Origin: Deltaproteobacteria bacterium
GTDB taxonomy: Bacteria; Desulfobacterota; Syntrophia; Syntrophales; Smithellaceae
Reading direction: 5' to 3'
Assembly: GCA_022710585.1 (NCBI GenBank)
Contig: JAKLGV010000015.1
Location: 5,623 to 69,622, forward strand
Length of the DNA stretch: 64,000 nt
Each line of letters begins with the position of its first letter. The first letter of the stretch is position 1. The notes beneath the pieces were generated by a model that saw nothing but the letters and a program-made list of their open reading frames with translations, made no database searches and was not told the DNA's origin. Below, one piece after another: positions 26,951-42,782 of the stretch. The position numbers were made by a program, and so were the translations under genes.

Positions 26951-27430
26951 TCATTTCACTTTCACCTTGAAGCCAACCTGACCTTTGCCGCCCTCGGGAA
27001 CTTTGGCAATGGTCCAGCGGATATTGGTGTATTGCTCGGGTGACGCGACTTTCTTTTCCACCTTTCCGCCCGGAAGCGTAATTTCGTAAGTCAGCAGGGA
27101 AGGTTTTTTAAACGTCTTGCCGCCGTCAATGGAAAACGTGACATCCGCATCGCTACCGAAGGCGCTGCCGTTAATATAGACCGTGCCTTTGGGAATCGGA
27201 TCATCCAGAACAGCGTTGGTTGCCGCTTCATTACCGGTATTGACGTAGCTGATGGTATAAATAACCACGTCACCGGAACTGATTTTAGTCACGGGCACCC
27301 TTTTGGTCGCATTATTGACTGTTACCTCTGTTTCCGCCTTCATGTTTACCGACAGAAGGGGTTTGGCCATCGCCTCCATCGCAAACATGAGCAAGCTCAT
27401 TGCCGCTAATAACGTAAAAATTTTCTTCAT
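26951..27430 (-). CDS. small secreted single-DUF11-domain protein
   Basis: Signal peptide MKKIFTLLAAMSLLMFAMEAMA/KP, then one module SGDVVIYTISYVNTGNEAATNAVLDDPIPKGTVYINGS...GQVGFKVKVK. Total 159 aa. Confidence 0.8.
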   Translation of the reverse strand: MKKIFTLLAAMSLLMFAMEAMAKPLLSVNMKAETEVTVNNATKRVPVTKISSGDVVIYTISYVNTGNEAATNAVLDDPIPKGTVYINGSAFGSDADVTFSIDGGKTFKKPSLLTYEITLPGGKVEKKVASPEQYTNIRWTIAKVPEGGKGQVGFKVKVK

Positions 27431-27548
27431 AACATCCTCCTTTCAGACACCTGTTAAAATATTTTTGATAAATCAGTAGAGTAAGCTTCTACTCATGCTC
27501 TTCTTGCCCATTATTTTTTTCACCTCCATATCATTTTATTTTGCACGC

Positions 27549-30500
27549 TTAATTAATCGTCACCTGAAACGTTATGGTTGCGCGTCCGACGACCGGCGGC
27601 CCGGCGCTGTAGGGCGGCAGAATGCCGGTTGCCGCCGCTCCCGCGCTGCGGCTTGAATTGTCGTCAATCAGAATTCCCGCGATCAGCGGCAGGGTGGCGC
27701 CGTCCCCGGCAACGGTAATGCCGTTAAGACGGGTGGAATTGGCCACATACGTCGTATATTGCGGCAGGGGGTCCGTGACTCTTGCATTAATCGCGTTGCC
27801 GGTACCGGTATTGGTAACAACAATGCTATAGGTTACGGTTTGTCCGGAACTTACCGGATTGGCGCTGGCGGACTTGACAATGGTGAGATTCGGTTGAGGA
27901 ACTATTACCCTCATTGTCGCATAAGCGGTATTGGTCACAGTTCCTTCCGTACCTTCAGTTGCTGTGACGCTGACCGACCAGTTGCCGGTGGGAGAAGTTG
28001 GCACGGTATATTGGTATTCATAGGTTTTTGTCAAACTTGGAGTCTCCGTCCCTGTAGCGACAAGCGTCATGGAGGCAGCATTGACTATGGTTGTTCCACC
28101 GGGATTTTTTATGGTGATTTTCGGGGCGTTGACAATATCATAACTGCCGAACGGGTCGCTCACCACCGCCCGAATATAAACGGTACTTCCGGTCGTCACG
28201 TAGGAAAGGAGAGTGCCTCCCGAATAGGCGGCATCGTAATAATTGATGGAATCAACATGAACAACCGTCGTTGCCGGGAGGTCAACACGGGAAGCAGCGC
28301 CGACGGTGGCCGAATACGGATATACGCGTGTGGCAACGGCGCCTGCAGTTTGAGAAACCGTAAGATTCCAGGTACTCCCCTGCGGACAGGTCACGTTGGC
28401 TGTATTGAGGGTGAAGGTGTACGCAGTCTGTGTATTATTGTTCATGGTGATATTTCGTGACGCTGTCATAATCGTGGGATCTGATGAGCACTTGAGATCA
28501 ACCTGGATGGTTCTTGTGCTGTTGGTATTGGTGTCTCTTCTCATATTTAAAACAACCGGGAATGTCGCACTAACCGACGAGTTAATCGCTATTGCCGCCG
28601 CCGCGGCCGGGTCCATAACCCATGTCCGGGAAGTCGTGGTATTGACCACTGTATATCCGGAAGTTGTTGTATTGGGTGTACGGGAAAGTTTCCACGACGG
28701 GCTTGAAGTGTTGTCATACAGATAAAGTCTCTTGGTTCCCGTGCCGGTCGTCGTACCGGCAACCGTGACCACCGGCGCCGTCGCTGTTGAACCCGTCCCG
28801 CTGGGCGTGTGTGTAATGATTGCCGTATTGGTAATCGTTGTTCCCGCCGCTGACGAGCTGGAAATATCCGCAGAATAAACAATTGTCACGGAACCGTTTG
28901 CGGGAACGGTAATTCCGGTAGCACTCAAGGTTGGAGCGCTGTAGGTGCAGGTAGCGCCGGTCGGGCAACTGGTTATGGTTACGTTTGTTAAATCCGTATC
29001 AATAATATCGGAAATCGAAACGTCGGTTGCCTCATTGCCTTTGGTTTCCGCAATGGTGATGGTATATTGCAGTGTATCGCCTGCTTCATACTCGCCGCCG
29101 TTGATATCAACCAGCGTTTTGGCGGAGGTGGATAAATCCGGCACGCACTCGGCGCCGGGTTCAATGCCGGGGGGCGCGGATGAATCAAACGCGGCATAAC
29201 CGCCGGACGAACTGGTAGAACCATAAGTATCATTCGCGGTTGTTGTCCTTCCGCTGACACCAGCGGCATAGGACATGGCAATCCCGAGAGTTGAGGGAGA
29301 GTAGGCAATAAACCCGCCGCTGCCGCCGCCGCCGGGTCCATGACGTTCACCCGGATATGTGGCCCCGGGTGCCTGAGATCGCCAGGCGTTGCCTCCATCC
29401 CCGCCGTTGACAGAAGCGGAGGCGGAACCTCCGGTATAGGAGTAGATAACAATGGACCCTCCGGCGCCGCCGCCGCCGGAACTGTCGTTTAGAACATTAT
29501 ATGCCGAACCGCCATTGGCCGTGATTGTTCCCGAACCGGTAATATAATTTGCCCTGATGATGACAATGCCGCCTCCGGGAGCGCCGCTGCTGCAAGCTCC
29601 GGCTCCAGAATTGCAGGCAATACCTGGAGGCGTGGGGGGCAGGTATGTTGAATTGTCCGCAGTGCCGTTATTGCTGGTACCGGCGCCGCCGCCGCCGCCC
29701 ATAACGATGCGATTAAAAGCGAGTCCGGTAACACCGTCACCGCCTTCACCACCGGTAGTGAGATTGGTGCTCCAGGAATTTCCGCCTTTCGCGCCGGCTG
29801 CGTAGTTGCCTCCTCCTCCGCCGCCGGTGTTCTCATCATTGTTTGCCGCATCCGCGTCTGTGCCGCCGCCACCCGCATTTCCGGGCGCGCCGCGGGCATA
29901 GGAAGCGTTTGAATTTGTTCCGTCCGGATAGCCGCTGCCACCTGTCACCTGTACCGGCGCGCCGTCAAAAGTTGCCGGCCTGTTCATGTAATACGGGGTG
30001 CCTGCTATTCCTTCGCCCTTGGATCCGTTGGCGCCGTTTGTGTAGGAGGTGCGATAGTCAGTATTCGCGCCGGTTCCGCCGTTAATCGAACGTCCATATC
30101 CGCCACGGAAACCGGCGCCATCGGCGGTGACGGTTCCATTGATCGTCAGGGTTCCGGCCACATCCATGGCCACAACACCGCCGACGCTGCCGTTCCAGTT
30201 GAGCGCCGACACCGTTCCGGACACTGTAGCCGAGGAGTATTGGGGAACACGAATGACCTGATAGCGACTCTGGCCATTGGTTCCCGAAGCCGCGCGATTG
30301 CGGTAACTGTAGGTCAGGCCGCTGGTAATACCGACAAACCCTCCGGCAACGGCACCAGACGCCCTTGCAAACTCATAATAGCCGGTCTGATTGAGATTTG
30401 TAGAACCTCTTCCGGTGCCTGAACCACTACCATAACTGCTGTTGTTACTGTAGTTTATGTCGGCATCCTGCATCTGAATGATTAATAGCAGATCTCCGGC

Positions 30501-30773
30501 GGCAATCGCCGGACCGCTGCCCAACGGAGAACCAACCGGAATGGATGTTGCGCCTGCAGAGACCGATGCCGTGCCGGGATAGTAGGTATTGATAACACCG
30601 GAAGGAGGCCCGGTACCGTCATTTCCGGGCGTGGCACAGTCAGCAAATGATTTTCCGGTGAATATCAGTTGGCAGAAAATGTAAGTTAATGTAAGGAAAA
30701 CCAGCGCAGAGTATATATGCTTATTTAATGGATTTCTATGCTTGAAAATGGCCATCACTCTTTTACGATTCAT
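27549..30773 (-). CDS. large secreted adhesin-like protein: N-terminal globular domain, Gly-rich beta-helix-like region, Ig-like/DUF11 modules
   Basis: Signal peptide ...FTGKSFA/DCATPGNDG. A poly-Gly/Ala/Ser-rich stretch (GGGGGNYAAGAKGGN, GGGGGAGTSNNG, GGGGAGGSIVIY, GPGGGGSGGFIAY). An internal DUF11-like module (AGDTLQYTITIAETKGNEATDVSISDIID). A terminal DUF11 module ending ATITFQVTIN. Confidence 0.85.
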   Translation of the reverse strand: MNRKRVMAIFKHRNPLNKHIYSALVFLTLTYIFCQLIFTGKSFADCATPGNDGTGPPSGVINTYYPGTASVSAGATSIPVGSPLGSGPAIAAGDLLLIIQMQDADINYSNNSSYGSGSGTGRGSTNLNQTGYYEFARASGAVAGGFVGITSGLTYSYRNRAASGTNGQSRYQVIRVPQYSSATVSGTVSALNWNGSVGGVVAMDVAGTLTINGTVTADGAGFRGGYGRSINGGTGANTDYRTSYTNGANGSKGEGIAGTPYYMNRPATFDGAPVQVTGGSGYPDGTNSNASYARGAPGNAGGGGTDADAANNDENTGGGGGGNYAAGAKGGNSWSTNLTTGGEGGDGVTGLAFNRIVMGGGGGAGTSNNGTADNSTYLPPTPPGIACNSGAGACSSGAPGGGIVIIRANYITGSGTITANGGSAYNVLNDSSGGGGAGGSIVIYSYTGGSASASVNGGDGGNAWRSQAPGATYPGERHGPGGGGSGGFIAYSPSTLGIAMSYAAGVSGRTTTANDTYGSTSSSGGYAAFDSSAPPGIEPGAECVPDLSTSAKTLVDINGGEYEAGDTLQYTITIAETKGNEATDVSISDIIDTDLTNVTITSCPTGATCTYSAPTLSATGITVPANGSVTIVYSADISSSSAAGTTITNTAIITHTPSGTGSTATAPVVTVAGTTTGTGTKRLYLYDNTSSPSWKLSRTPNTTTSGYTVVNTTTSRTWVMDPAAAAAIAINSSVSATFPVVLNMRRDTNTNSTRTIQVDLKCSSDPTIMTASRNITMNNNTQTAYTFTLNTANVTCPQGSTWNLTVSQTAGAVATRVYPYSATVGAASRVDLPATTVVHVDSINYYDAAYSGGTLLSYVTTGSTVYIRAVVSDPFGSYDIVNAPKITIKNPGGTTIVNAASMTLVATGTETPSLTKTYEYQYTVPTSPTGNWSVSVTATEGTEGTVTNTAYATMRVIVPQPNLTIVKSASANPVSSGQTVTYSIVVTNTGTGNAINARVTDPLPQYTTYVANSTRLNGITVAGDGATLPLIAGILIDDNSSRSAGAAATGILPPYSAGPPVVGRATITFQVTIN

Positions 30774-30899: not shown

Positions 30900-31319
30900 T
30901 TATGAATTGAAAAGTTTACCGGCAGCCGTTTGACATTCAGAACAAACGCCGTAAACATTGACTGCTATTTTTTGAATGTCATAATCATGTTTCTGATCTT
31001 CAGAAATCAATAACTGACGGTCTACATCAATGTTAATATCAACAACCTTTCCGCAGGAAGTGCAAATCAGGTGATCGTGAGGTGTGACTGTTGAATCATA
31101 CCTCTTTGAATCTGTTTGCACCATCACAGGCAGTTCCACGATATGTCCTCTCTTTTTAAACAGTTCCATCGTGTTGTAAACTGTCGTTAAGGAAATATTG
31201 GATAGTTGCTTGGAAACGTGTTGATAAACTTCTTTAATGCTCGGATGAGATTTGTTGTCCTTGATATAATTATAGATGGCTAATCTCTGTGCGGTTTTTT
31301 GCGGTTCTTTCTGTTTCAC
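30900..31319 (-). CDS. Fur-family metalloregulator (Fur/PerR/Zur-like)
   Basis: Winged-helix N-terminus (RLAIYNYIKDNKSHPSIKEVYQHV), an HDH motif and two CxxC pairs (CTSCGKV...CSEC). GTG start 31319 with RBS GGAGG 6 nt upstream. Confidence 0.85.
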   Translation of the reverse strand: MKQKEPQKTAQRLAIYNYIKDNKSHPSIKEVYQHVSKQLSNISLTTVYNTMELFKKRGHIVELPVMVQTDSKRYDSTVTPHDHLICTSCGKVVDINIDVDRQLLISEDQKHDYDIQKIAVNVYGVCSECQTAAGKLFNS

Positions 31320-31372
31320 TTTAAACCTCCATAATTTCTAACATTTTATTCAAAATTTGAAAACATTACTAG

Positions 31373-31389
31373 TTTGTAATTATTACAAA
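31373..31389. promoter_or_regulatory. 17-bp perfect palindrome (8-1-8), candidate Fur-family/TetR operator
   Basis: TTTGTAAT-T-ATTACAAA lies 54-70 nt upstream of the Fur-family start, between a minus-strand TTGACG (31400..31405) and the gene. It is flanked by direct repeats AAATTTGAAAA (31353..31363 and 31387..31397). Confidence 0.45.
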
Positions 31390-31515
31390 TTTGAAAAATC
31401 GTCAATAATTATTTAACGGATTTGATAATAAACATCATTCGACATAATAAATTATAAGTTATTGTAATATATTATTATTTATCAATAACAATTTTTGATA
31501 AACACATAAAAAATC

Positions 31516-31544
31516 TTGACATAATTAAATAACGCTGTTATCTT
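31516..31544 (+). promoter_or_regulatory. sigma70-type promoter of the tetR/glycyl-radical-enzyme operon with an overlapping palindrome
   Basis: TTGACA (31516..31521), a 17-nt spacer, then TATCTT (31539..31544). The spacer contains ATAAC-GCT-GTTAT, a plausible TetR operator. Confidence 0.45.
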
Positions 31545-31572
31545 AACACCGCTATTTAAAAAGGTGGACATC

Positions 31573-32244
31573 ATGCCTAAAAAGCCCATGACCAAACAAG
31601 ATGTGGAGAATACCCGCGAGTTGATTCTGGATACTGCTCTCGACATCATTATCAGGGACGGTTTTCAGAATCTCAGTCTGCGGAAAATCGCATCGCGATT
31701 AAATGTGACGGCCACGACCATTTATAATTATTACACCAATAAAGATGAAATCAACCTGATGATCCGGATCAGAGGATTTGAGAAGCTTTATGACCTCCTG
31801 GTGAAACGCTCGGCTCCTTTGAAAAAAATGGAAGATCGGCTAAAGGCCATGATCCGCGCGTATGTTGAGTTCGGCCTGACCTATCCCGGCTACTATGATA
31901 TCATGTTCAACCTCCACACACCCAAATATCTCGACTATGTGGGAACAGACATAGAACCTCTCGCCTTTAAGGAAAAACAGAATGCTTTAAAATGCCTTTC
32001 CCTTTTTGTGGAACCGATCAGTAGCTACATCACGGTGAAGGGAAAAAGAAAAGATCAATATGTTTTATATCAGGTGATCAAATTCTGGTCTGATCTACAC
32101 GGTCTTGTCACCCTGAATAACAGCCGCTTATTTCATGAAGTCACAGATAAGGTGGAAGACTTTATCGAAAAACGCACCGCCGAAATGACTGATGAGGTTT
32201 TGAGACTTAAACAAAGTCTCGATGGGGGCAAGAAGCTATTTTAA
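31573..32244 (+). CDS. TetR/AcrR-family transcriptional regulator
   Basis: N-terminal HTH ILDTALDIIIRDGFQNLSLRKIASRLNVTATTIYNYYTNKDE. ATG 31573 follows the RBS AAGGTGG; the ORF-track start 31564 is a GTG. Confidence 0.88.
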   Translation: MPKKPMTKQDVENTRELILDTALDIIIRDGFQNLSLRKIASRLNVTATTIYNYYTNKDEINLMIRIRGFEKLYDLLVKRSAPLKKMEDRLKAMIRAYVEFGLTYPGYYDIMFNLHTPKYLDYVGTDIEPLAFKEKQNALKCLSLFVEPISSYITVKGKRKDQYVLYQVIKFWSDLHGLVTLNNSRLFHEVTDKVEDFIEKRTAEMTDEVLRLKQSLDGGKKLF

Positions 32245-32278
32245 ACAAAAATAACCCTGGGAATATTGGAGGTAGGCT

Positions 32279-35251
32279 ATGCAAGCCGCAAGGACAAATG
32301 AAAAAAGGTTGAATGATAAGCTGGCCAATTTGTTTCTTAAATTTGTCGCCTTTAATTTCAACAACCGTCCTTCATTAAATAAATATCTGAAAAGCGATGA
32401 CGGCTGGTTGAACTTCACCTTCGGTATCAAAACGGAAAACGGCAGCGTGGAACAGGCCTTGAGCATTGAAAACGGCAAGATTCGCGTATTAAAACAAATG
32501 CCGGACAAATTTGATGCCCAACTGATCTTCAGGGATGAAGACGCGCTTAAGGAAGCCGCCACACAGCCCCCCAACAAGCTGATGATCGCGCTCATGGAAA
32601 ACAGAATGATTCCCGTCGGCAACCTCGGTTATCTGCAATTAATCAATTTGTATCTATCGCTGCTATTGAAACAAATTCAGATTGCGAAACTGAAGAACGA
32701 AGCCAAAGCGGAAAACCGGAAATACGATGCCGGCAAAGCATCGAAACACAGTATTGAGACCAGAAAACCGCGACAGCTCAAAGCAGAGTCTGTCGATCCG
32801 TGCGTCAGATTCCTGAAAGACCCCTATCTGGCAGAATATTCGCTGGATGATTTTCCAAGAGTCAAAGATTTTCTGGATATTCATCTGAAAACAAAACCGG
32901 CCATCTGTCATGAACGGGCGGAGCTGATCACGCAATGGTACAAAGAAAATGGATTTGAAAAAGATAAGAACGGCAAGCCCTGGGTTGTCGAACTGCGCCA
33001 GGCCAACGCTTTTAAATATTTGATGGAAAACAGACAACCCATCATTCGTCAAAATGATTTGATTGCCGGAACCAATACGACCAAAGAGATCGGCGTCATC
33101 ATTTATCCGGAAGCGCACGGCACCATGATCTGGGGAGAATTGCTTACCGTTCCCCACCGGCCGTTGAATCCTTACGATGTCGATCTCGACACCATTGACG
33201 TTCTGCATAACAAGGTATTCCCTTTCTGGATCCGGCGTAATTTCCGCGAGTGGGTGAGATACAATAAAGGATATCCTCTCTGTCAGAAGCTGGATGAGCG
33301 TTTTGCTGCCTGCTTCTTGTGGAAAACCGTCGCGCTGTCGCACACGATTTTAAATTATCCCGAAATACTCAGCAAGGGCGCCAACGGCATCATCGAAAAC
33401 ATCGACCGGGAACTGAGCGCCACACCGGAAAACGAAAAGCAAAAACGCGATACATTGCAGTCGATGAAGATCAGCATGGAAGGAATCAACGCCTACGCGA
33501 AGAATCTGGCGCAGGAGGCTTGGCGTCTCGCGTCTCAGGAAACTCAACCTGTCCGCAAAAACGAATTGCTTCATCTGGCTGAGATCTGCAAACGTGTCCC
33601 GGCCAATCCCTGCACAACGCTGGATGAAGCCGTCAATGCCATGTGGATCATCTGGATCGGTGTGCATATGGAAAACACCAATGCCGGATTTTCCCTGGGA
33701 CGGCTGGATCAATGGCTGCAACCTTATTTTATTGCCGATATGGAAAAAATTAAGGATGAAAAGGAAAAACAAGACTACATCAAGCACGCGATTGAAATGA
33801 TCGGCTGTTTCTACATGCGCTGTACGGATCATCTGCCTTTGATCCCGGATATCGGAAATTATTTATTCGGCGGAAGCTCCTCCGACCAGGCCATCACGCT
33901 GGGCGGCGTAACACCTTCTGGAGAAGATGCCGTCAATGACATGACGTATATTTTCCTGAAGGTGACGGAGATGCTCTCCATCCGTGATCCCAACGTCAAC
34001 GCCCGTTACAACAAGAGCAAAAACAGCGTCACCTATCTGAAGAGACTTTGCGAAGTCAATTTAAATACCACGGCCACCCCATCCATTCACAATGACGAGG
34101 TGGTGATGGAATCGCTCGCGGAATTCAACTATCCGCCGGAACATCTGCGTGACTGGTCGGCAACCGGCTGCGTGGAGCCGACGCTTTCCGGACGGCACAT
34201 TGGCCACACCAACTGTATGATGTTCAACATGGTGGCGGCGCTGGAGATGGCACTCAACAACGGCCGGCATCCGTTGATGCGCTGGGATCTGGGGCCAAAA
34301 ACCGGTGATATCAAGGCGGGAGCGTTTCCCGATTATGAATCCTTCTTTAACGCTTTTGCAACACAGCTTCGTTTTCTGGCCGATCAAACCTGTGAATACA
34401 ACAATCTGCTGGGTGAAGCCCATCAGGCGATTCGTCCGACCCCTTTCATCTCGGCTCTGATTGAGGGACCGTTGAAAAAAGGGAAAGACGTCACCAGGGG
34501 CGGTGCTCTCTATAACTCATCGGGAACCGCCTGCATCGGCCTTGCCGACATTACCGACTCCCTGATGGTGATCAAAAAGCTGGTCTTTGAAGATAAAAAA
34601 ATAACGTTTGGCCAACTACTGGATGCAATCAACACCAACTTTAAAAATGATCCCGCACTGCATGCACTGATAAAAAATAAGACCGCGCTTTTCGGCTCGG
34701 GCAGTGAAGAAGCTCTGGCGACAGCCAACCGCGTGACCAAACTGGCTCACGACATTTTTATCGAGCACGAAAATTACCGCGGCGGCAAATATACCGCAGG
34801 CTTCTGGTCGATGTCCAACCATGTCGCTTTCGGCACTCTAACTGGCGCGCTTCCATCAGGAAGACTGGCCGGTAAAGCCTTTACACCGGGCCTTACACCG
34901 GAACCGCACGCTTCCAAGAGCATTCTGGACAACATTCGCGATGTCGCCCGATTAAAGCCGGAAAATATGAACAATAATATTGCTTTTAACGTGAAGGTTG
35001 TACCCGGCGCACATGAATCGCATCAGAAAACCGTGGAGAATATTTATTCGTATGTAAAAACATACAGCGATCTCGGCGGCATGCAGATGCAACTCAATGT
35101 CGTGTCTTCCAAAACGCTTCGTGATGCCATGGAACATCCAGAGAATTATCAGAATCTTCTTGTCCGCATTTCCGGCTACAACGCGTACTTCGTAACGTTG
35201 AACAGGGAGATGCAGATTGAATTGATTGAAAGGGCAGAGTTCGGAATCTAG
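32279..35251 (+). CDS. glycyl radical enzyme (PFL2/glycerol-dehydratase-like 'eliminase' class) with an N-terminal SCP2-like extension of about 165 aa
   Basis: C-terminal glycyl-radical motif LLVRISGYNAYF (Gly966, nt 35174..35176). Thiyl loop ATGCVEP (Cys631 at nt 34169..34171, Glu633). 990 aa against roughly 800-850 typical. Residues 10-135 or so resemble SCP2 (DAQLIFRDEDALKEAAT..PNKLMIALMENRMIPVGNLGYLQL). Confidence 0.9.
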   Translation: MQAARTNEKRLNDKLANLFLKFVAFNFNNRPSLNKYLKSDDGWLNFTFGIKTENGSVEQALSIENGKIRVLKQMPDKFDAQLIFRDEDALKEAATQPPNKLMIALMENRMIPVGNLGYLQLINLYLSLLLKQIQIAKLKNEAKAENRKYDAGKASKHSIETRKPRQLKAESVDPCVRFLKDPYLAEYSLDDFPRVKDFLDIHLKTKPAICHERAELITQWYKENGFEKDKNGKPWVVELRQANAFKYLMENRQPIIRQNDLIAGTNTTKEIGVIIYPEAHGTMIWGELLTVPHRPLNPYDVDLDTIDVLHNKVFPFWIRRNFREWVRYNKGYPLCQKLDERFAACFLWKTVALSHTILNYPEILSKGANGIIENIDRELSATPENEKQKRDTLQSMKISMEGINAYAKNLAQEAWRLASQETQPVRKNELLHLAEICKRVPANPCTTLDEAVNAMWIIWIGVHMENTNAGFSLGRLDQWLQPYFIADMEKIKDEKEKQDYIKHAIEMIGCFYMRCTDHLPLIPDIGNYLFGGSSSDQAITLGGVTPSGEDAVNDMTYIFLKVTEMLSIRDPNVNARYNKSKNSVTYLKRLCEVNLNTTATPSIHNDEVVMESLAEFNYPPEHLRDWSATGCVEPTLSGRHIGHTNCMMFNMVAALEMALNNGRHPLMRWDLGPKTGDIKAGAFPDYESFFNAFATQLRFLADQTCEYNNLLGEAHQAIRPTPFISALIEGPLKKGKDVTRGGALYNSSGTACIGLADITDSLMVIKKLVFEDKKITFGQLLDAINTNFKNDPALHALIKNKTALFGSGSEEALATANRVTKLAHDIFIEHENYRGGKYTAGFWSMSNHVAFGTLTGALPSGRLAGKAFTPGLTPEPHASKSILDNIRDVARLKPENMNNNIAFNVKVVPGAHESHQKTVENIYSYVKTYSDLGGMQMQLNVVSSKTLRDAMEHPENYQNLLVRISGYNAYFVTLNREMQIELIERAEFGI

Positions 35252-35273
35252 ATCAGAGATAGATTAATCATTC

Positions 35274-35375
35274 GTGTCATTTCGAGAAGTCCCGACGAGT
35301 CGAGACGACGAGAAATCTTTTTTAATGAACGTTTTAAGACTTCTCATCCCGACACATCGGGATTCGAAGTGACAA
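35274..35375. repeat. gene-less (MITE-like) pair of GTCATT...AATCTT repeats in outward-facing inverted orientation
   Basis: GTGTCATTTCGAGAAGTCCCGACGAGTCGAGACGACGAGAAATCTTT (35274..35320), 15 nt, then TAAGACTTCTCATCCCGACACATCGGGATTCGAAGTGACAA (35336..35375). The topology matches the ends of the GIY-YIG cassette. Confidence 0.7.
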
Positions 35376-35425
35376 AAATTTTAAGCGCAACTTAATATAA
35401 TTAAAAAAGTCTGGAATATTTATTT

Positions 35426-36361
35426 ATGGTACAAAATGAAATAAAAACCCCTTTGATTCTGGAAATCAAAGGCAACAGTCTCGATGACGGGCCGGGCATC
35501 CGCTCCGTAGTGTTTTACAAAGGATGCCCTCTTTCCTGCGTCTGGTGTCACAATCCGGAAAGTAAAAAACCCTCTGTGGAAATATCCTTTGACCCGAAAG
35601 TCTGTATCGACTGCGGTACCTGCCGCGAGCTTTGTCCGAAGAAAGCCCTTTCCCGTGATAATCGTTTTTACATCGACCGAAGCAAATGCGACCTTTGTTT
35701 TTTATGCGTTGATGTCTGCCCTTCGGGCGCGTTGGACAGCGTCGGAAAAAACATGTCCGCTGAGGAAATCATGAAGAAGATTCTTCCGGACAAACCCTTC
35801 TTCGATACATCAGGCGGCGGTGTAACCCTTTCCGGAGGCGAACCGACTCTCTTCATGGATTTCACATCTGGGCTTTTAAAGTCGCTCAGGCAAAACAATA
35901 TTCATACCCTTATGGAAACGTGCGGTTTATTCGACATCCATAAATTTATGGACATGCTCTATCCGTATCTGGACGCTATTTATTTTGACATAAAAATTAT
36001 CGATAGCGCTGCGCATAAAAAATATTGCGGCGTGACCAATGAAAAAATACTGGATAATTTCATCAGGCTTGCCAAAACGGCAAAAAAAGACGGCAAGACT
36101 CTTTTGCCGCGGACACCGCTCATTCCCGATATGACAGATATCGAAAGTAATATTCAGGGAATTGCGGCTTTTCTTAAAAACCTGAATATTACAGAAGCCG
36201 CTCTTCTGGCGTATAATCCTTTATGGCACGAAAAAAGCGATAAAGTCGGTGTTGACGATCCCTATAAAAACAATAAAGTAATGAATTCCTTTCGTAAGAA
36301 TAGCATCATGGAAAGATGCGAAAATATTTTTGCTGCATCAGGAATAAATAATATTTTGTAG
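35426..36361 (+). CDS. glycyl-radical enzyme activating enzyme (radical SAM)
   Basis: CX3CX2C motif GCPLSCVWCHNPE plus two ferredoxin-type clusters (CIDCGTCRELCP, CDLCFLCVDVCP) and GGVTLSGGEP. Confidence 0.92.
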   Translation: MVQNEIKTPLILEIKGNSLDDGPGIRSVVFYKGCPLSCVWCHNPESKKPSVEISFDPKVCIDCGTCRELCPKKALSRDNRFYIDRSKCDLCFLCVDVCPSGALDSVGKNMSAEEIMKKILPDKPFFDTSGGGVTLSGGEPTLFMDFTSGLLKSLRQNNIHTLMETCGLFDIHKFMDMLYPYLDAIYFDIKIIDSAAHKKYCGVTNEKILDNFIRLAKTAKKDGKTLLPRTPLIPDMTDIESNIQGIAAFLKNLNITEAALLAYNPLWHEKSDKVGVDDPYKNNKVMNSFRKNSIMERCENIFAASGINNIL

Positions 36362-36427
36362 GGATTGTTCCCCGAACAATCCGTTGCGGCGCATTCGGGC
36401 AATGCGCTATCAAAACCAGTGAGGTAA

Positions 36428-37435
36428 ATGATGATATCAAAAATAGTCCAACCGGTTCTGGTCACGGGAGCCACCGGATTCATCGGCAGCAGAGTCGTGC
36501 ATAAGCTTTTACAAAACGGAGTCGCGGTGAAAGTACTGGCGCTCCCCGGTGAAGCAATACCGGACGAATGGGCCGAAAAAGTCGAGATTGTCCGCGGCAG
36601 CATATCCGATCCTCAGGCGGTGGAAAAAGCGGCCAAAGACGCCAAAACGATCATTCATCTGGTTGCCATTGTTACCGACTGGGGGGACGAGAAAAAGTAC
36701 TGGGACTTTACGGTCGAAGGAAGTCGGAAGATTTTTGACCAAGCCGTCAGAAATAATGCCCGCGTCGTGCTGGCTTCCAGCATTGTGGTTTATGGAGACA
36801 AAATTTACAGCCAGCCCTGCCCTGAAGAAACTCCATACGGAAAAACATTTGGCCCCTACAGCCGGACCAAACAGGCACAGGAAAATCTCGCCTGGAATTA
36901 TCATAAAGAAAAAGGAATGAAGCTCACCGTGGTTCGTCCGGCTAATGTCTACGGCCCGCGTTCAGGCCCCTGGCTTCATGATATCATTAACGTTCTTCGC
37001 AGCGGTTCGCCCGGTCTGATCTCCGGAGGAAATATGAACGCGGGACTTGCGTATGTGGACAACGTTGCCGATATTCTTATCCTCGCGGGATCAACGGAAA
37101 AAGCAATCGGCAGAGCTTATAATGCCTCCGATTGCACAGACGTTACATGGAAACAGTATTTTACGGATATCGCTGATATGATCGGAGCAAACAAACCTAA
37201 GTCAATCCCCCGGCCTTTAGCTGCCGTCGGCGCCAGCGCCCTGGAAGGCATATGGAAACTGCTCGGCATTCAAAAACGCCCTCTGATCACCCGTGAAGCG
37301 CTGAATCTGATCGGATCAAACAATCGCATTCCCAATGACAGAGTCCGGAAGGAATTGCAATATCATCCACGAATTTCTTATTCGGAAGGTCTGCAGCGCA
37401 CCAGAGAATATTTATTAAGAGATTTTTCAAAATAA
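36428..37435 (+). CDS. NAD(P)-dependent epimerase/dehydratase family oxidoreductase (extended SDR, 3-beta-HSD/aldehyde-reductase-like)
   Basis: Rossmann motif VLVTGATGFIGSRVV and catalytic YSRTK. 335 aa. Confidence 0.85.
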   Translation: MMISKIVQPVLVTGATGFIGSRVVHKLLQNGVAVKVLALPGEAIPDEWAEKVEIVRGSISDPQAVEKAAKDAKTIIHLVAIVTDWGDEKKYWDFTVEGSRKIFDQAVRNNARVVLASSIVVYGDKIYSQPCPEETPYGKTFGPYSRTKQAQENLAWNYHKEKGMKLTVVRPANVYGPRSGPWLHDIINVLRSGSPGLISGGNMNAGLAYVDNVADILILAGSTEKAIGRAYNASDCTDVTWKQYFTDIADMIGANKPKSIPRPLAAVGASALEGIWKLLGIQKRPLITREALNLIGSNNRIPNDRVRKELQYHPRISYSEGLQRTREYLLRDFSK

Positions 37436-37451
37436 TCCGAAGGATTTTTTT

Positions 37452-38285
37452 ATGGCTTACTTTTCCGGCAAACTCGTTTATATCACCGGCGGCTCCAGCG
37501 GCATCGGGCTGGCAGCGGCAAATTTGCTGGCAGCGGAAGGTTGCCGTCTCGTTCTGATCGCGAGAGGAGAACCGCTTCTCGACAAGGCCTGCAAAACCAT
37601 CGCGAGTCAAACAGATCAAACCGCGCAAGCCATCAACTTCATATGCATGGATGTCGCCAATAACGATGACGTCCGGCAGAAAATCAAAACCGCCGTCGAA
37701 ACCTTCGGCATCCCCGACATACTGATCAATAGCGCGGGGATTGGCACCGGTGATTATTTTGAAAATATTTCTTACGAACAGTTTGACAAGGCCATGAAAA
37801 TAAATGTGTACGGCACGAGAAACGTCATCAGCGCCACGCTTCCCTATATGAAACAGAAAGGCGGCGGACATATTGTCAATATTGCTTCCGTGGCCGGATT
37901 GATCGGCATGTTCGGCTACACGACTTACAGCACCACCAAATACGCCATCGTGGGTTTTACGGAATGCCTGCGTAGCGAACTCAAGCGATTTAATATTAAA
38001 GTGACGCTGATCTGCCCCCCGGAAGTCAAAACGCCTTTTATCCATGAAGAAGCGAAGACGCTGCCGCCCGAGGCACGGGTTGTCAAGAATCTTGCAGGTC
38101 TGTTAACACCGGAAGAGGCGGCAAAGGCCATTGTCCAGAGCATCAAAGGACGAAAATTCCTGGTGGTGCCGGGCGTCATGGCCAAATCAATGCTATTCTG
38201 GCACCGCATCAGCAACGGATTGCTGACGCGTGTGCCTTCGGATCTGATTATTAAATTTGCTTCCCGGCCGTCGCTTAAAAAATAA
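37452..38285 (+). CDS. classical short-chain dehydrogenase/reductase (3-ketosphinganine-reductase-like)
   Basis: ITGGSSGIGLAAA cofactor motif, NSAG, and catalytic YSTTKYAIVGF. 277 aa. Confidence 0.85.
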   Translation: MAYFSGKLVYITGGSSGIGLAAANLLAAEGCRLVLIARGEPLLDKACKTIASQTDQTAQAINFICMDVANNDDVRQKIKTAVETFGIPDILINSAGIGTGDYFENISYEQFDKAMKINVYGTRNVISATLPYMKQKGGGHIVNIASVAGLIGMFGYTTYSTTKYAIVGFTECLRSELKRFNIKVTLICPPEVKTPFIHEEAKTLPPEARVVKNLAGLLTPEEAAKAIVQSIKGRKFLVVPGVMAKSMLFWHRISNGLLTRVPSDLIIKFASRPSLKK

Positions 38286-38341
38286 TCAAAGGATTTGATC
38301 ACCTGCTCCCTGAATGATAGAACCTGTGCCGCCGGCAACAA

Positions 38342-38932
38342 TTATTTCGCCGGATCCGCTGGATTACGATCCTGGAGCCTTATCCCCTGCACATCGCGTT
38401 TTTTTCTGTCCACGCTGGAAAAATCGTCCTCGATTACAATCAAAAAGGGTCTGCTATCATAGACCCATCTCTGGAAAACAGCGCCGTCATAGAACACCTC
38501 CGTATAAACACCGGATGGCACCGTCTGCTGTTCTTTAAGAAAACAAAACGGATCATACCGATGCGTCCAGTCGCCCTTCTCACATACAAAGGTCAGCCAT
38601 TTCCCCGCTTCAAAGCTGACATCCACCGTATCTTCTGTGCTGTTCATGGCGATCCCGGGCAGCTTGTCGCTGAAGTTGATTTCTTCTATAAGTTTCCCTT
38701 TGACAGACTTCAGCGTATGACCTTCCGCAATTTTTTTGCTGTCGAGCGTCGTCACCTCTCTGTATAACCGGAGAGGATGGGATAAGTAAAACTGGACATT
38801 CTTGATATCGTCATTCGTCAACGCGTACTTTTCTTTTAAGTTCGACGTAAAGGGAACGTAGTGAACACAGGAACTCAAGAACAATGATAATAAAATCATT
38901 GCAAGGGTATTGAGCAGAGATCTCATGGCCAT
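38342..38932 (-). CDS. hypothetical lipoprotein
   Basis: Lipobox LFLSSC in MAMRSLLNTLAMILLSLFLSSCVH. No recognised domain. Confidence 0.6.
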   Translation of the reverse strand: MAMRSLLNTLAMILLSLFLSSCVHYVPFTSNLKEKYALTNDDIKNVQFYLSHPLRLYREVTTLDSKKIAEGHTLKSVKGKLIEEINFSDKLPGIAMNSTEDTVDVSFEAGKWLTFVCEKGDWTHRYDPFCFLKEQQTVPSGVYTEVFYDGAVFQRWVYDSRPFLIVIEDDFSSVDRKKRDVQGIRLQDRNPADPAK

Positions 38933-38999
38933 CCTCCTTTTTTACGATAATATTTTAATTTATGTCATCAACGCATGGCTCGCCGACAATCGAAGAAGC

Positions 39000-39689
39000 C
39001 TAGAAACGGAACTTGAATCCCAGGGTCACCATGCTGGTTGAAAATTCAATGTCGCGGGAATCTTCATGTTCATGATCATAGTCGTCATCATCATCATCTA
39101 ATTCCATTTCTGTTACAAAATAACGATAGCCGAGATCCAACGACAGGTTGTAGGCCAGGTCAAATTCCACTCCCGCCATCAGTTGCCAGGCATATCCCGT
39201 GTCATCTCCCCGGCTGATCCATTCTCCGTCTTCAGCGGACATTTCATGATGGGAAAATCCAATCCCTCCACCGCCGTAGGGATGAACGACGCCGAAGGGA
39301 ATTTTCCAGATGATATTGAACATGAAATTGTTGAACTCGATGTCTCCCACGGTCTCGTCATAATAAGTCATATCCGGATTCAGATAGAGATATTCCAGCT
39401 CCAGAGCCAGCACTCTGAATTGCGGAGGAGAAAAACCAAGCTTGGCCCCGAATACGGCGGCTTCATCAATATCTAAATTGATGTCATATTCGTCACAATC
39501 CCAATCATCACAATACTCATAACTTAAATCGGGAGCGATGGTATAGCCTCCCCATATGCCAAAATATCCTCCGACCTGGTAAGCGCTGCTATAATATCCT
39601 CCACTTTGAGCCGACGCTGATTTCAGTGGGTAAGCAGCAAACAATACAGCGACTGTTAAGATAAAAATAAAACTGGCTGCTTTTTTCAT
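39000..39689 (-). CDS. small outer-membrane beta-barrel protein with acidic loop inserts
   Basis: Signal peptide ...KSASA/QS, alternating aromatic strands and a terminal GFKFRF. Acidic runs CDDWDCDEYD and DDDDDDYDHEHED. Confidence 0.7.
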   Translation of the reverse strand: MKKAASFIFILTVAVLFAAYPLKSASAQSGGYYSSAYQVGGYFGIWGGYTIAPDLSYEYCDDWDCDEYDINLDIDEAAVFGAKLGFSPPQFRVLALELEYLYLNPDMTYYDETVGDIEFNNFMFNIIWKIPFGVVHPYGGGGIGFSHHEMSAEDGEWISRGDDTGYAWQLMAGVEFDLAYNLSLDLGYRYFVTEMELDDDDDDYDHEHEDSRDIEFSTSMVTLGFKFRF

Positions 39690-39787
39690 ATCTCTTCTCC
39701 TTTCCTTTGTTTTAAATGTATTTTAAATCTTTATACAGGATTTGCCAAGCTTCATCTTTTAACCTCACATTGCCCGTTGACTGCTGA

Positions 39788-41740
39788 CTATGGTGGCGAT
39801 ACTGAAGGCAGTACTGAAACTGACTTGAGATGTTCCAGAAGGATCCTCCGCACTTCTTCTATCGTCAGGGGGTGTCCCTGGCAGGAATGGCCGGACCGTA
39901 CGATATACTCGGACTCCACACCTTCCTGATGAGCGCTTTTGTACTCTACAACTCCATCATTCCCTTGCGGCGGTATGTCGTCTCCATCGATGGCAATGAT
40001 GGAGTGGGTCTTTACGCCGGAAGCTACCGGCAGTTCCGCCAGCGTCTGCAGAATCGGATTATCGGGTGACATGCCATCAACACTGGTGGGGAGTTTGTTG
40101 CCGATATCGATGGGCAACTTCAACTGACGAAACAAATTACTCAGAATATTGGGATTCCCGGCCACAACATTATAGGGAAGCGTCAGAACGTCCATGGGCA
40201 GGGATACAATTCTCTTAATGATGCCACGGACCCAGTTCTTGGCCTGAAAACTGCCGCGAAACGGCGCGGAAATGTACACCGTCCGCTTGACAAAAGGAAG
40301 AGGTTCAACAAAGGCCCATTTGCGCAGTAGCGCTTTCATTTCCGGTGGCGTGTCCAGGTCTTCGAAGTTTTTATCGCTGACCGACCTCCAGAGCGCATCT
40401 CCGGATTTAACCGCAGTCAATTTTGTCAGAAGCCCTCCCTGGCTGTGGCCGATAACAACCATCTGCTGCAGCGCCGTGTCATCTCCTTTGGGATCAATCC
40501 TGGCGATCGTATCGGACAGGATACTGCGCAAATCACTGGCCGAGGCTACAAAAGGCAGACTGCTGTTGTAGAAAAAAAACCAGAACTGAAAGCGTTTACG
40601 CAGCACCGGATCGGCGCTGAGCGTATTCCACATCTCCCCCCACCAGACAGGACTGCTGGCCGTGCCGTGAACAAACACGAGCGGTATCTTTCCCCTTTGG
40701 TAGGGTTGAATCATCAACAGCTCCGATTTCTTTTTTCCCGGAGTTAAAAACGACTGAATTCCCAGATCCCAGATCGGAGCATCATTGAGCTGGTAAGCAA
40801 TCGGTGTTGTGGAATCAGTTTCCAGGGGGACTTTATGGTCATTGATCATGGTTTCAACTTCGTCATATCCCGAATAGAGCTCCAGGGAAGCGCGGGCGGC
40901 GTTGTTGCTCAGGGCGTTGATATCCCCTTCGATCTTCAGCAGCGCCGTGACCGGTATCGCCATACCGCGAGGCGACTGCTTCGTTTTTTTCTTAATGGCT
41001 ACCAGGGGTAACCCGATACCCGCAGTCCGGTTGCGTGTTGTCAGTCCGCGCACTTCATAATCATCTGCCGCCAGGAAGGACTGAAAGTCTTCCAGCGGAA
41101 TACCGAGGGAGTTTTTGATGGGGACGAGAGTGATATCACCGACAGGCAGACGGTGGACCTGTTTTTTGAATTTCCAGTCGCCATTTTCGCCGAGCGCCAG
41201 ACCTCGGCCCAATGCGCGATTATAAAGTTCACTGGCAGTTATAAATCTGCGATCATAGGGTCGGGGAGAATTTTCGTTTGCCCGTCCATAAAGATAATAA
41301 TAGGCATAGATGGAAGACATCAGGAAGTAATCTTTATCCAATCCCGTCTGATCAGGAGAAATTGCGTTCCTTAATCGTTCTCCATGAAAAAAGCTCAATT
41401 CCGCCAGAGCAAAAAGGATATCCCGTCTCGCGTCCTTTAGAGCCTTCTCGTGGAGCAAGGCAATCACGCCGGCCGTGTCCTTGTCCAAACGGTCAAGCAG
41501 ATTGAAACGCTTCAGCAGAACCTTTGTGTAGGAACTGATCTCATCCGCAGAGAGGGCATTGGCATTAATGGACTTGTATGAATCCCTCAGTTCCACCTTC
41601 TTAACACCAATCGGTGTGGCACAGGCACAGAGCGACATAATCAGAATAAAGATGAGAACGACTCGAAATATACGTGAAATAATTTCACGACTGATTTTTA
41701 CTGCCAAACAATCATATCCTTTAGTTTGATTGATCATCAC
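39788..41740 (-). CDS. alpha/beta-hydrolase (lipase/esterase-like) lipoprotein, 650 aa
   Basis: Lipobox ILIMSLCAC. Oxyanion-region LVFVHGTASS and nucleophile elbow VIGHSQGG. Confidence 0.75.
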   Translation of the reverse strand: MMINQTKGYDCLAVKISREIISRIFRVVLIFILIMSLCACATPIGVKKVELRDSYKSINANALSADEISSYTKVLLKRFNLLDRLDKDTAGVIALLHEKALKDARRDILFALAELSFFHGERLRNAISPDQTGLDKDYFLMSSIYAYYYLYGRANENSPRPYDRRFITASELYNRALGRGLALGENGDWKFKKQVHRLPVGDITLVPIKNSLGIPLEDFQSFLAADDYEVRGLTTRNRTAGIGLPLVAIKKKTKQSPRGMAIPVTALLKIEGDINALSNNAARASLELYSGYDEVETMINDHKVPLETDSTTPIAYQLNDAPIWDLGIQSFLTPGKKKSELLMIQPYQRGKIPLVFVHGTASSPVWWGEMWNTLSADPVLRKRFQFWFFFYNSSLPFVASASDLRSILSDTIARIDPKGDDTALQQMVVIGHSQGGLLTKLTAVKSGDALWRSVSDKNFEDLDTPPEMKALLRKWAFVEPLPFVKRTVYISAPFRGSFQAKNWVRGIIKRIVSLPMDVLTLPYNVVAGNPNILSNLFRQLKLPIDIGNKLPTSVDGMSPDNPILQTLAELPVASGVKTHSIIAIDGDDIPPQGNDGVVEYKSAHQEGVESEYIVRSGHSCQGHPLTIEEVRRILLEHLKSVSVLPSVSPP

Positions 41741-41779
41741 CGGACTCCTTTCTCCGATTCTCCTGGAACAATTCTGAAT

Positions 41780-42778: not shown

Positions 42779-42782
42779 CTCA

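Follow-up and report, generated by a model that had tools for sequence, protein, structure and literature searches.

An SCP2-fused glycyl radical enzyme under TetR control in a Smithella-like anaerobe: a candidate C–O eliminase for amphiphilic alcohols

Organization of the operon

The operon described here occupies positions 31516–38285 of the + strand in a 64,000-nucleotide stretch of contig JAKLGV010000015.1 (assembly GCA_022710585.1), which is referred to as a whole as the window and derives from a Smithella-like anaerobe. Its five co-directional open reading frames (ORFs) encode, in order, a TetR-type regulator, a glycyl radical enzyme (GRE) with an N-terminal domain resembling sterol carrier protein 2 (SCP2), a GRE-activating enzyme (activase), an extended short-chain dehydrogenase/reductase (SDR) and a classical SDR. 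All five lie where the initial annotation, made from the DNA sequence alone, had placed them. The genes are separated on this single strand by intergenic gaps of 34, 174, 66 and 16 nt. The 174-nt gap between the GRE and activase genes holds no plausible candidate for a small-subunit gene, its largest ORF being 32 codons long, and an Rfam scan of the operon returned only a noise match (tmRNA, 13 bits against a gathering threshold of 47), with no riboswitch or leader element found.

The GRE gene (32279..35251, + strand) is preceded by a GGAGG Shine-Dalgarno sequence 8 nt upstream and encodes 990 residues. The regulator gene (31573..32244, + strand) encodes a TetR_N helix-turn-helix domain (PF00440, E = 1e-10) and a TetR_C_33 C-terminal domain (PF13305, E = 1.2e-10). 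The mechanically called ORF begins at a GTG codon at 31564; the most likely start is the ATG at 31573, because it is preceded by the Shine-Dalgarno sequence AAAGGTGG and because the resulting length of 223 residues fits that of the orthologues (219–231 residues). The activase (35426..36361, + strand) is a radical S-adenosylmethionine (SAM) enzyme with the CxxxCxxC motif and two auxiliary ferredoxin-type 4Fe-4S motifs, and scores 285 bits against TIGR02494 (cut-off 174), in agreement with its earlier description as a three-cluster activase.

The extended SDR (36428..37435, + strand; Epimerase/3Beta_HSD family) contains the motifs GATGFIG and YSRTK, and the classical SDR (37452..38285, + strand; adh_short) the motifs TGGSSGIG and YSTTK. 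The extended class and the YSRTK motif of the former stand as first read, while its 3-beta-hydroxysteroid dehydrogenase label reflects generic family resemblance. The classical SDR likewise resembles 3-ketosphinganine reductase only generically, and a search of the Protein Data Bank (PDB) gives this similarity no specific support. Genes for a bacterial microcompartment (BMC) shell, for sulfite handling or for amino-acid metabolism are not found among the Pfam-scanned neighbours between 26.9 and 44.0 kb, as had been noted before.

The N-terminal SCP2 domain

From the sequence alone, the GRE had been thought to carry an SCP2-like N-terminal extension of about 150 residues. The SCP2-like domain is present, at approximately residues 10–135 (32306..32683, + strand), as indicated by profile, Pfam and Foldseek evidence, whereas the extension proves to be longer, about 190 residues, consisting of the domain (∼125 residues) and a linker of ∼55 residues. 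The linker (approximately residues 136–192; 32684..32854, + strand) is basic and variable in sequence, and ends in the conserved motif DPGVxFLxDPYLxxYSLDDFPR, which opens the GRE core.

PF02036 is the sole Pfam family that registers on the N-terminal extension of the window protein, at 15.5–16.3 bits (E = 0.023) and thus below its gathering threshold of 21.3; nine out of 22 orthologous N-domains match it at E≤1, the best at 2.4e-5. It is the family profile and the predicted fold that identify the domain as SCP2. When a profile of the N-domain family is compared with the PDB, the top three matches are rabbit and human SCP2 (1c44, 2c0l and 1qnd), aligned over 87 residues with E-values of about 0.012. 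In this alignment the segment GNLGYLQL coincides with the SCP2 hallmark GNMGLAMKL, the two sharing the motif GN(L/M)G...L. An AlphaFold model of residues 1–143 (predicted local distance difference test score, pLDDT, 86; predicted template modelling score, pTM, 0.76) shows two helices, four strands, two helices, a strand and a helix, which is the order of elements in the alpha/beta SCP2 fold, a five-stranded sheet packed against helices. The first ∼40 Foldseek matches of this model in the PDB are all SCP2-fold proteins, with the SCP2 domain of UbiJ as the best (E = 1e-5, target-normalised TM-score 0.70), and they include SCP2 of yeast, insects and humans, SCP2 proteins from archaea and Thermus, the SCP-2L domain of MFE-2, and the SCP2 domains of the alkylsulfatases SdsA1 and Pisa1.

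An exhaustive phmmer search with residues 1–192 against 1.84 billion representative proteins yields only 130 matches, the full-length ones being ∼980–1040 residues long and the remainder resembling fragments at contig ends. Since all full-length matches are GREs of about 1000 residues, the N-domain is private to this GRE lineage. In the full-length model of the enzyme the linker has a pLDDT of at least 88, which suggests a fixed docking of the SCP2 domain on the core and not a loose tether. The domain would presumably bind the substrate.

A different role for the domain may nevertheless be envisaged. The enzyme could apply the same GRE chemistry to a small, soluble, polar substrate (a sugar derivative, a polyol, an amino alcohol, or a phospho- or sulfo-alcohol), with the SCP2 domain acting as a cap, as an oligomerisation or regulatory module, or as a membrane-association module. 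Structural SCP2-like domains do exist, as in Eis, and in long-form CutC a large extension at the N-terminus has no role in lipid binding. Extra subunits or elements are known to gate the substrate channel in GREs, and the characterised GREs with a CXE motif (Cys and Glu) all use small polar molecules (PMC13450708). The very polar character of the invariant pocket residues, described below, points in the same direction. Retention of the full SCP2 topology together with its sequence hallmark argues against this explanation, as does the observation that its closest matches in structure are genuine lipid-binding proteins and the SCP2 domains of enzymes acting on alkyl substrates. The TetR_C_33 regulator and the hydrolase, FadL and acyl-CoA neighbours, although weak signals, also fit hydrophobic chemistry better. 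On balance we regard a small polar substrate as the less probable explanation, but as the most serious competitor to a lipid-directed enzyme.

The GRE catalytic core and active site

The catalytic core begins at about residue 193. Hidden Markov models of both GRE families match the protein, PF02901 at residues 203–852 (E = 7e-175) and PF01228 at residues 869–972 (E = 4.6e-25; 34883..35194, + strand). The latter region is the glycyl radical domain, in which the motif RISGY (residues 963–967), invariant among the orthologues examined, contains Gly966 (nt 35174–35176). Alignment places the Cys loop GCVEP at residues 630–634 (34166..34180, + strand), with the thiyl residue Cys631 and the CXE glutamate Glu633. 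These assignments agree with the initial annotation. A glycyl radical motif of the RVxG[FWY] type, a barrel like that of pyruvate formate-lyase (PFL) in which Cys631 takes the position of Cys433 of glycerol dehydratase (GD), and the accompanying radical-SAM activase identify the protein as a member of the GRE superfamily. The CXE motif marks GRE 1,2-eliminases and isomerases, of which a review of June 2026 counts six C–O, one C–N and three C–S eliminases and three isomerases (PMC13450708). Both the motifs and the scores against PDB entries uphold the earlier placement in this class, and not with PFL or the X-succinate synthases. X-succinate synthases (4pkc, 9o8u) score 192–227 bits, compared with 342–376 bits for the eliminases, at 21–23% identity, and an identity as X-succinate synthase is further argued against by the presence of the CXE motif and the lack of small subunits.

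The AlphaFold model of the full-length enzyme has a pLDDT of 92.2 and a pTM of 0.92. Its closest structural matches in Foldseek are propanediol dehydratase (PD), GD, PFL2, HypD and CutC, with target-normalised TM-scores of 0.93–0.95 at sequence identities of 24–29%. In a sequence search of the PDB the best match is PFL2 from Archaeoglobus fulgidus (2f3o, E = 3e-111), followed by CutC and the propanediol and glycerol dehydratases. All NCBIfam equivalog models remain far under their cut-offs (HypD NF043068, 414/1100; CutC TIGR04394, 382/1050; NF048011 (HpsG), 382/1000; NF048009, 351/1000), and the PFL2/glycerol-dehydratase subfamily model TIGR01774 gives 512 bits against a cut-off of 678.

These comparisons bear on the possibility that the protein is simply an orthologue of a characterised GRE (GD, PD, CutC, HypD, IslA/HpsG/HpfG, PflD/YbiW or alkylsuccinate synthase) with an N-terminal extension. 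The role of alkylsuccinate synthase was reportedly once proposed for A. fulgidus PflD. Such an orthology would explain the near-identical fold (TM-scores of 0.9–0.95) and the strong match to PFL2. The identity to each of these enzymes is nevertheless at most 29%, the equivalog scores fall far below their cut-offs, the residues with which GD, PD and CutC bind their substrates have been exchanged, and PFL2, which lacks the N-domain, is itself of unknown function (PMC13450708). We therefore consider orthology to a known GRE very improbable. The active-site comparison proposed earlier leads to the same result, as the catalytic domain differs from every characterised GRE in its pocket residues and shares only 24–29% identity with every solved GRE. 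The enzyme is located inside the eliminase/isomerase radiation, but near none of its members.

The residues of the pocket were mapped by alignment to liganded homologues, bridged via the propanediol dehydratase structure 9rco to the glycerol dehydratase structure 1r8w, whose chain numbering reproduces the published residues His164, His281, Ser282, Tyr339, Cys433, Glu435 and Asp447. The catalytic trio is retained, GD Cys433, Glu435 and His164 being equivalent to Cys631, Glu633 and His355. The His355 codon lies at 33341..33343 (+ strand), and the residue also corresponds to Asp216 of CutC. In GD the glutamate deprotonates the substrate hydroxyl and His164 protonates the leaving hydroxyl group (PMC13450708). 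The remainder of the pocket is changed with respect to GD: His281-Ser282 are replaced by Ala469-Gly470, Tyr339 by Asp536, His446-Asp447 by Thr644-Asn645, and Tyr157-Tyr158 by Trp348-Lys349. Asp536 is part of the invariant motif FGGSSSDQ. With respect to CutC, Asp216 becomes His355, Phe395 becomes Asp536, Thr502 is kept as Thr644, Tyr506 becomes Met648 and Tyr208 becomes Trp.

Replacement of GD His281-Ser282 by Ala-Gly would make the pocket larger distal to the reacting carbons, and thus able to fit a substrate that extends beyond a three-carbon head. From the residue changes we infer that such a substrate could be a glycerol substituted at position 1, a 1,2-diol with a long chain, or a compound with an R-O-CH2CH2OH unit. 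The predicted head-group site is polar, with invariant Asp536, Lys349, Ser, His and Asn residues.

The exchanges at the CutC positions raise the question whether a C–N bond is cleaved. A CutC-like lyase acting on a lipid amino alcohol, for instance a sphingoid base or a 2-amino-1-alkanol with a long chain, might bind the ammonium group via Asp536 and produce a hydroxy-aldehyde that is reduced by the SDRs. The invariant Asp536 at the position of CutC Phe395 and GD Tyr339 and the equivalence of Thr644 to CutC Thr502 are compatible with this proposal, to which the resemblance of the SDRs to sphingolipid reductases in the first reading, not confirmed as specific, could be added. The residue that defines CutC, Asp216, is however a histidine here, as in the dehydratases, and Tyr506 and Tyr208 of CutC are replaced by Met and Trp. 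The ketosphinganine reductase resemblance of the SDR lacks specificity, and sphingolipid genes (Spt, CerS) were not seen in 86 neighbourhoods of the family. Cleavage of a lipid amino alcohol thus seems improbable.

Family and distribution

A word-indexed search yields 723 proteins at E≤1e-50. The best 120 of these 723 show 65–100% identity, mostly with 97–100% query coverage apart from a few truncated entries, and nearly all are 980–1000 residues long (the exceptions having 774, 889, 930 and 1000 residues). The names of the relatives are no more specific than pyruvate formate lyase family or glycyl radical protein. Relatives are encoded in at least 138 GTDB species-representative genomes from six or more phyla, and 80 loci of these 138 genomes were fetched, with identities of 57–91% and alignments that start at about residue 10. 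The closest relatives (91%) belong to the Smithella/Smithellaceae/Syntrophaceae group. Others are found in Desulfobacterales, Desulfosudaceae, Desulfomonilia, Myxococcota, Bacteriovoracaceae, Spirochaetota/Leptospirales, Chitinophagales, Bacteroidaceae, and rumen and gut Clostridia (Mogibacterium, Lachnospiraceae, Anaerovoracaceae).

The whole GRE, including the N-domain, is highly conserved, and the SCP2 fusion is invariant in the orthologues. The inferred pocket residues are identical in all orthologues examined, which range from 58 to 100% identity and span several phyla. This invariance argues for one well-defined substrate and for a spread of the gene by horizontal transfer.

Several more distant or rearranged relatives were also observed. 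Two proteins with 40–42% identity, P0176 (1007 residues) and P0190 (984 residues), keep the SCP2-like N-domain and the GRE fold, but contain GAAAP and GDGGP in place of GCVEP and RVGAC and RSAGA in place of RISGY. Because both the Cys loop and the glycyl motif are lost, these are apparently catalytically dead GREs. Tandem sister isozymes with 56–58% identity adjoin the orthologue in a Spirochaetota locus (L050:6432–9395, + strand) and a Syntrophaceae locus (L067:1865–4921, + strand). They retain the SCP2 domain and the catalytic residues, with pocket substitutions A469T, F471L, N645G, M648L and N847Q; this shifted pocket suggests a second, related substrate. The protein P0134 has a pocket pattern that is similar, but not identical, to that of these isozymes. 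Finally, in a delta-proteobacterial metagenome-assembled genome an ORF of 1117 codons (L046:5557–8910, + strand) lies just upstream of the TetR-GRE operon. It joins a CxxxCxxC radical-SAM activase (N-terminal ∼290 residues) in frame with a GRE core of 28% identity, and is either a genuine fusion of the two enzymes or an artefact of the assembly or of a frameshift.

Promoter, operator and regulation

Upstream of the regulator gene lies a sigma-70-type promoter (31516..31544, + strand), consisting of a −35 hexamer TTGACA (31516–31521), a 17-nt spacer and a TG-extended −10 hexamer TATCTT (31539–31544). With 10 of 12 matches it has the top score of 18 promoter-like sites in the interval 31200–38500. 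A 27-bp palindrome, ATAACGCTGTTA-TCT-TAACACCGCTAT, is centred on the −10 hexamer (31529..31555; ATAACGCTGTTATCTTAACACCGCTAT) and forms part of an inverted repeat (31525–31559) with 16-nt arms that are 88% complementary. The promoter and the overlapping palindrome thus correspond to those described initially.

In 1.51 Mb of related loci there are 82 copies of the strict core of the palindrome, GTTA-N3-TAAC. Of these cores, 68 are located between −130 and +40 of a TetR start, covering 57 of 62 TetR genes, whereas ∼0.0016 would be expected per such interval. The other 14 are mostly full palindromes in the same intergenic position, at loci where the ORF caller missed the TetR gene. The consensus of the operator is ATAAC-RNY-GTTA-N3-TAAC-RNY-GTTAT. 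Its conservation in front of 57 of 62 TetR genes shows the palindrome to be a real operator and not a chance AT-rich feature; the case for TetR control, already made from the window, is thereby strengthened. A palindromic operator at its own promoter also completes, with the PF00440 and PF13305 domains, the characteristics of a TetR-family member. From the position of the conserved operator over the regulator's own promoter it follows that the operon is autoregulated, and by analogy with TetR-family repressors in general it would be induced by a ligand. Ligand-induced control is typical of catabolic, detoxifying or efflux functions, and less so of housekeeping biosynthesis.

Divergent from the TetR promoter region, a gene for a Fur-family regulator is present at 30900–31319 (− strand), and the same Fur neighbour occurs in locus L021. 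The 250-nt AT-rich region between the Fur and TetR genes contains further inverted repeats at 31353–31405 and 31444–31502, which may be the Fur gene's own operator or operators.

Gene neighbourhoods

Neighbouring genes were surveyed by tblastn in 86 loci, 48 of which are complete, i.e., extend at least 3 kb upstream and at least 5 kb downstream. The activase adjoins the GRE in 43 of the complete loci, and TetR is directly upstream of the GRE in 41; Clostridial loci are without TetR and have the gene order activase-GRE. None of the neighbour clusters that recur in the 86 loci consists of BMC shell genes. In 40 of the 48 complete loci, one or more carbonyl-redox enzymes are encoded within 8 kb of the GRE, and these enzymes belong to four unrelated families that replace each other according to lineage.

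The classical SDR is the more widespread of the SDR pair, being present in 23 complete loci (36 of 86 overall), compared with 16 (27 of 86) for the extended SDR. SDR genes directly follow the activase gene in Smithella, Desulfobacterales and some Spirochaetota, and in seven loci, for instance in Desulforegula conservatrix, the two SDRs are fused into a single protein of 620–670 residues. A clade with 64–67% identity to the window protein (L004, L047, L049, L051–L054, L056, L057, L061, L062 and L064–L066) instead has a tungsten-type aldehyde:ferredoxin oxidoreductase (AOR) and a polyferredoxin, encoded divergently from TetR across the operator region. As they have the operator-containing intergenic region in common with TetR, these two genes are probably co-regulated with it. 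Three Clostridial loci have another AOR gene on the same strand, 28–454 nt downstream. Its product shares only 27–28% identity with the deltaproteobacterial AOR, which indicates that the AORs were recruited independently. In Mogibacterium and Anaerovoracaceae an aldo/keto reductase with an Fe-S tail (AKR-FeS) is encoded 58–67 nt downstream. If this GRE makes an aldehyde, as do the diol dehydratases, CutC and IslA, aldehyde-handling enzymes would be expected to have been recruited independently.

Downstream in the 64–67% clade lie genes for an EEP phosphodiesterase-like protein, a thioredoxin, AMP-forming and ADP-forming acyl-CoA synthetases and a long acyl-CoA dehydrogenase. In ten loci of this clade the EEP gene (Exo_endo_phos; sphingomyelinase/phosphodiesterase type) is positioned tail-to-tail after the activase gene. 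GlpK and MlaE were considered as a clue to glycerolipids and down-weighted, being part of a housekeeping synteny block that is split from the GRE by the oppositely oriented AOR genes.

Alternatively, the enzyme might be an anaerobic lyase for ether lipids or ether surfactants, in which ketyl-radical cleavage of the C–O bond beta to the hydroxyl group would yield an alcohol and an aldehyde or hydroxy-ketone. One may speculate that the substrates would be 1-O-alkylglycerols, archaeol-type dialkylglycerols after removal of the head group, or alcohol ethoxylates and polyethylene glycol-type R-O-CH2-CH2-OH compounds. The AOR, acyl-CoA synthetase and acyl-CoA dehydrogenase could process 3-alkoxypropanal, and the EEP phosphodiesterase-family protein could expose the free glycerol hydroxyl. 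The CXE motif and the general-acid histidine suit an alkoxide leaving group, and YbiW and PflD cleave the ring ether of anhydro-sugars (PMC13450708). Since ether bonds are not hydrolysable, the need for radical chemistry would account for the use of a GRE on a lipid. UbiJ, the best match of the N-domain, binds isoprenoid lipids, and according to the record titles members of the family come from anoxic habitats rich in methanogens (digesters, peat, sediments, groundwater and rumen). This habitat argument is weak, being common to most strict anaerobes, and the accessory genes are clade-specific. Moreover, the same catalytic residues find a simpler explanation in vicinal-diol dehydration. As the ether-lyase proposal is entirely inferential, we consider it unlikely.

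Some neighbours, among them the EEP, acyl-CoA synthetase and acyl-CoA dehydrogenase genes of the 64–67% clade, constitute a soft signal for lipids. Genes for alpha/beta-hydrolases adjoin TetR in the loci L003, L006 and L041, and in the window a FadL/TodX-type outer-membrane channel for hydrophobic compounds and a lipase-like hydrolase are encoded in a block that converges on the operon (38342–44030, − strand). The block comprises the FadL/TodX gene (42783–44030), the gene for an Lnb_N protein (41780–42778), that for the 650-residue lipase-like alpha/beta-hydrolase (39788–41740), that for an outer-membrane beta-barrel protein (39000–39689), and that for a 196-residue protein without a Pfam match (38342–38932). 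Such a set of genes would fit the uptake of lipids, but it does not accompany the orthologues in other genomes.

Other observations concern single lineages. In a Myxococcota locus without SDRs the activase gene is followed by one for a homologue of the D-component of 2-hydroxyacyl-CoA dehydratase (HGD-D; L025:14345–15592, + strand), an oxygen-sensitive radical-type enzyme. On the other side of the operon, the window encodes a Gly/Thr/Ser-rich surface protein of 1074 residues beside a DUF11-domain protein of 159 residues (26951–30773, − strand), and two further loci of the Smithella type also have DUF11-type paralogues (cluster c22) upstream of the operon.

Proposed function and mechanism

Taken together, the data lead us to propose, with moderate confidence, that the operon is a ligand-inducible catabolic or detoxifying system in which a new clade of CXE GREs, built on an SCP2 lipid-carrier domain, functions as a C–O eliminase on an amphiphilic alcohol. 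TetR would occupy the 27-bp palindrome over the −10 box until released by an inducer, which is probably either the substrate itself or a hydrophobic molecule related to it. The activase would then generate the radical on Gly966, from where it would move to Cys631, and the resulting thiyl radical would take a hydrogen atom from the hydroxyl-bearing carbon of the substrate. Glu633 would deprotonate the substrate hydroxyl, while His355 would protonate a group leaving from the adjacent carbon, most probably OH or OR, resulting in C–O cleavage. The product radical would finally regain hydrogen from Cys631 to give an aldehyde or ketone. In this mechanism the SCP2 domain would hold the hydrophobic tail of the amphiphile while the polar head enters the barrel. 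Our best guess is that this amphiphile is a lipid or surfactant whose head is of the glycerol, 1,2-diol or beta-alkoxy-alcohol type.

A carbonyl product, either aldehyde or ketone, is probable, since carbonyl-redox partners are encoded in 40 of the 48 complete loci. The suggestion of the initial annotation that such a product is subsequently reduced would apply to the lineages with SDRs. Here the two SDRs would reduce it, while in other lineages it would be oxidised by an AOR or handled by the AKR-FeS protein. In the AOR lineages the acid produced might be passed on to beta-oxidation.

A number of observations weigh against a lipid-directed C–O eliminase. The pocket is strikingly polar, with Lys349, Ser533–535, Asp536, His640, His643, Asn645, Asn847 and His848, and equally suits a small polar or charged substrate; Asp536 in particular could indicate an amine-bearing substrate and cleavage of a C–N instead of a C–O bond. 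The C-terminal domain of Eis, which is among the Foldseek matches of the N-domain, is an SCP2-like domain with a structural role. Eight of the 48 complete loci have no carbonyl-redox partner, and the SDR pair is limited to one type of lineage. PDB searches with the two SDRs yield generic relatives alone, so that no function can be transferred from them. The acyl-CoA genes, GlpK and MlaE of the 64–67% clade may represent plain synteny of close relatives. The FadL, Lnb_N and lipase-like genes of the window were rejected as members of the system, as they are singletons in the cross-locus clustering.

Novelty and significance

A lipid-directed GRE, an SCP2-GRE fusion or this family itself was not found in the literature searched, including the June 2026 review of GREs (PMC13450708), which agrees with the earlier remark that a characterised GRE with such a fusion is not known. 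A paper on limonene and a Smithellaceae GRE was considered and set aside, because it concerns a fumarate-adding enzyme and not the SCP2-fused GRE. To our knowledge, no characterised CXE-type GRE carries a lipid-carrier domain. The radical machinery and the enzyme class are thus known, while the domain architecture and the pocket are new, as is probably the substrate class.

The family offers a well-defined and tractable candidate for anoxic radical chemistry on amphiphilic or lipid substrates. Anaerobic attack on the non-hydrolysable bonds of ether lipids, long-chain diols and glycol-ether surfactants is poorly understood, and is of relevance to carbon turnover in sediments, peat, digesters and the rumen as well as to the interpretation of lipid biomarkers. 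The operator and its TetR protein provide a direct handle on the inducer, and hence on the substrate. Should the enzyme act as an ether lyase, it would allow strict anaerobes such as Smithella, sulfate reducers and rumen Clostridia to break down glycol-ether surfactants or the ether lipids of archaea and bacteria. Should the substrate be small and polar, the enzyme would still represent a new GRE specificity and a new structural role for an SCP2 domain.

Comparison with known systems

The closest known parallels are the glycerol dehydratase of Clostridium butyricum (1R8W/1R9D) and the propanediol dehydratase of Roseburia inulinivorans (5I2G; 9RCO). With these enzymes the GRE shares the ten-stranded barrel (TM-scores of 0.93–0.95), the glycyl radical motif, the GCVEP Cys loop, the general-acid histidine (GD His164 and PD His166, equivalent to His355), a three-cluster activase, a single-subunit organization and an aldehyde-processing enzyme encoded nearby. 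However, the sequence identity is only 28–29% and the residues that bind the substrate hydroxyls are replaced, with GD Tyr339 being Phe in PD and Asp here. In addition, the present enzyme carries a 190-residue SCP2 domain and linker, and is under TetR control instead of lying in a dha or microcompartment context.

With PFL2 from A. fulgidus (2F3O) the enzyme has Ser-His at positions 354–355 and the GCVE loop in common. At 29% identity, PFL2 is shorter (776 residues), aligns from residue 218, lacks the SCP2 domain, and has Gln-Ala at positions 469–470 and Asn at position 536. Because the function of PFL2 is unknown (PMC13450708), it provides no transferable annotation.

The anhydro-sugar-phosphate isomerases YbiW and PflD and the eliminases CutC and IslA follow the same CXE ketyl-radical logic, the beta substituent in YbiW and PflD being an ether oxygen (PMC13450708). 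They are 24–28% identical to the present enzyme, but use small soluble substrates and contain no lipid-carrier domain. Unlike the C–S lyases and dihydroxypropanesulfonate (DHPS) dehydratase (IslA, IseG, HpsG and HpfG), the enzyme has no Arg in the beta1-loop (residues 345–356) or in residues 841–851, the approximate location of their Arg/Gln/Arg sulfonate-binding set. HypD is 28% identical, and the score against its model NF043068 is below the cut-off. Long-form (type II) CutC of the Klebsiella/Proteus type (9F3W, 1150 residues) is an earlier case of a GRE eliminase substantially extended at its N-terminus, but that extension aligns to helices of the GRE core, and hence represents an internal partial duplication and not an SCP2 domain.

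The N-domain itself shares the SCP2 fold with SdsA1/Pisa1, MFE-2, SCPx, stand-alone SCP2 and UbiJ (Foldseek E-values down to 1e-5, probability 1.00), at sequence identities of 11–22%. The SCP2-fused enzymes among these display a common design, in which a catalytic domain is combined with an SCP2 module that binds a lipid or alkyl group. In those enzymes the module is attached C-terminally to a metallo-beta-lactamase, a dehydrogenase/hydratase or a thiolase, whereas here it is positioned N-terminally on a radical enzyme.

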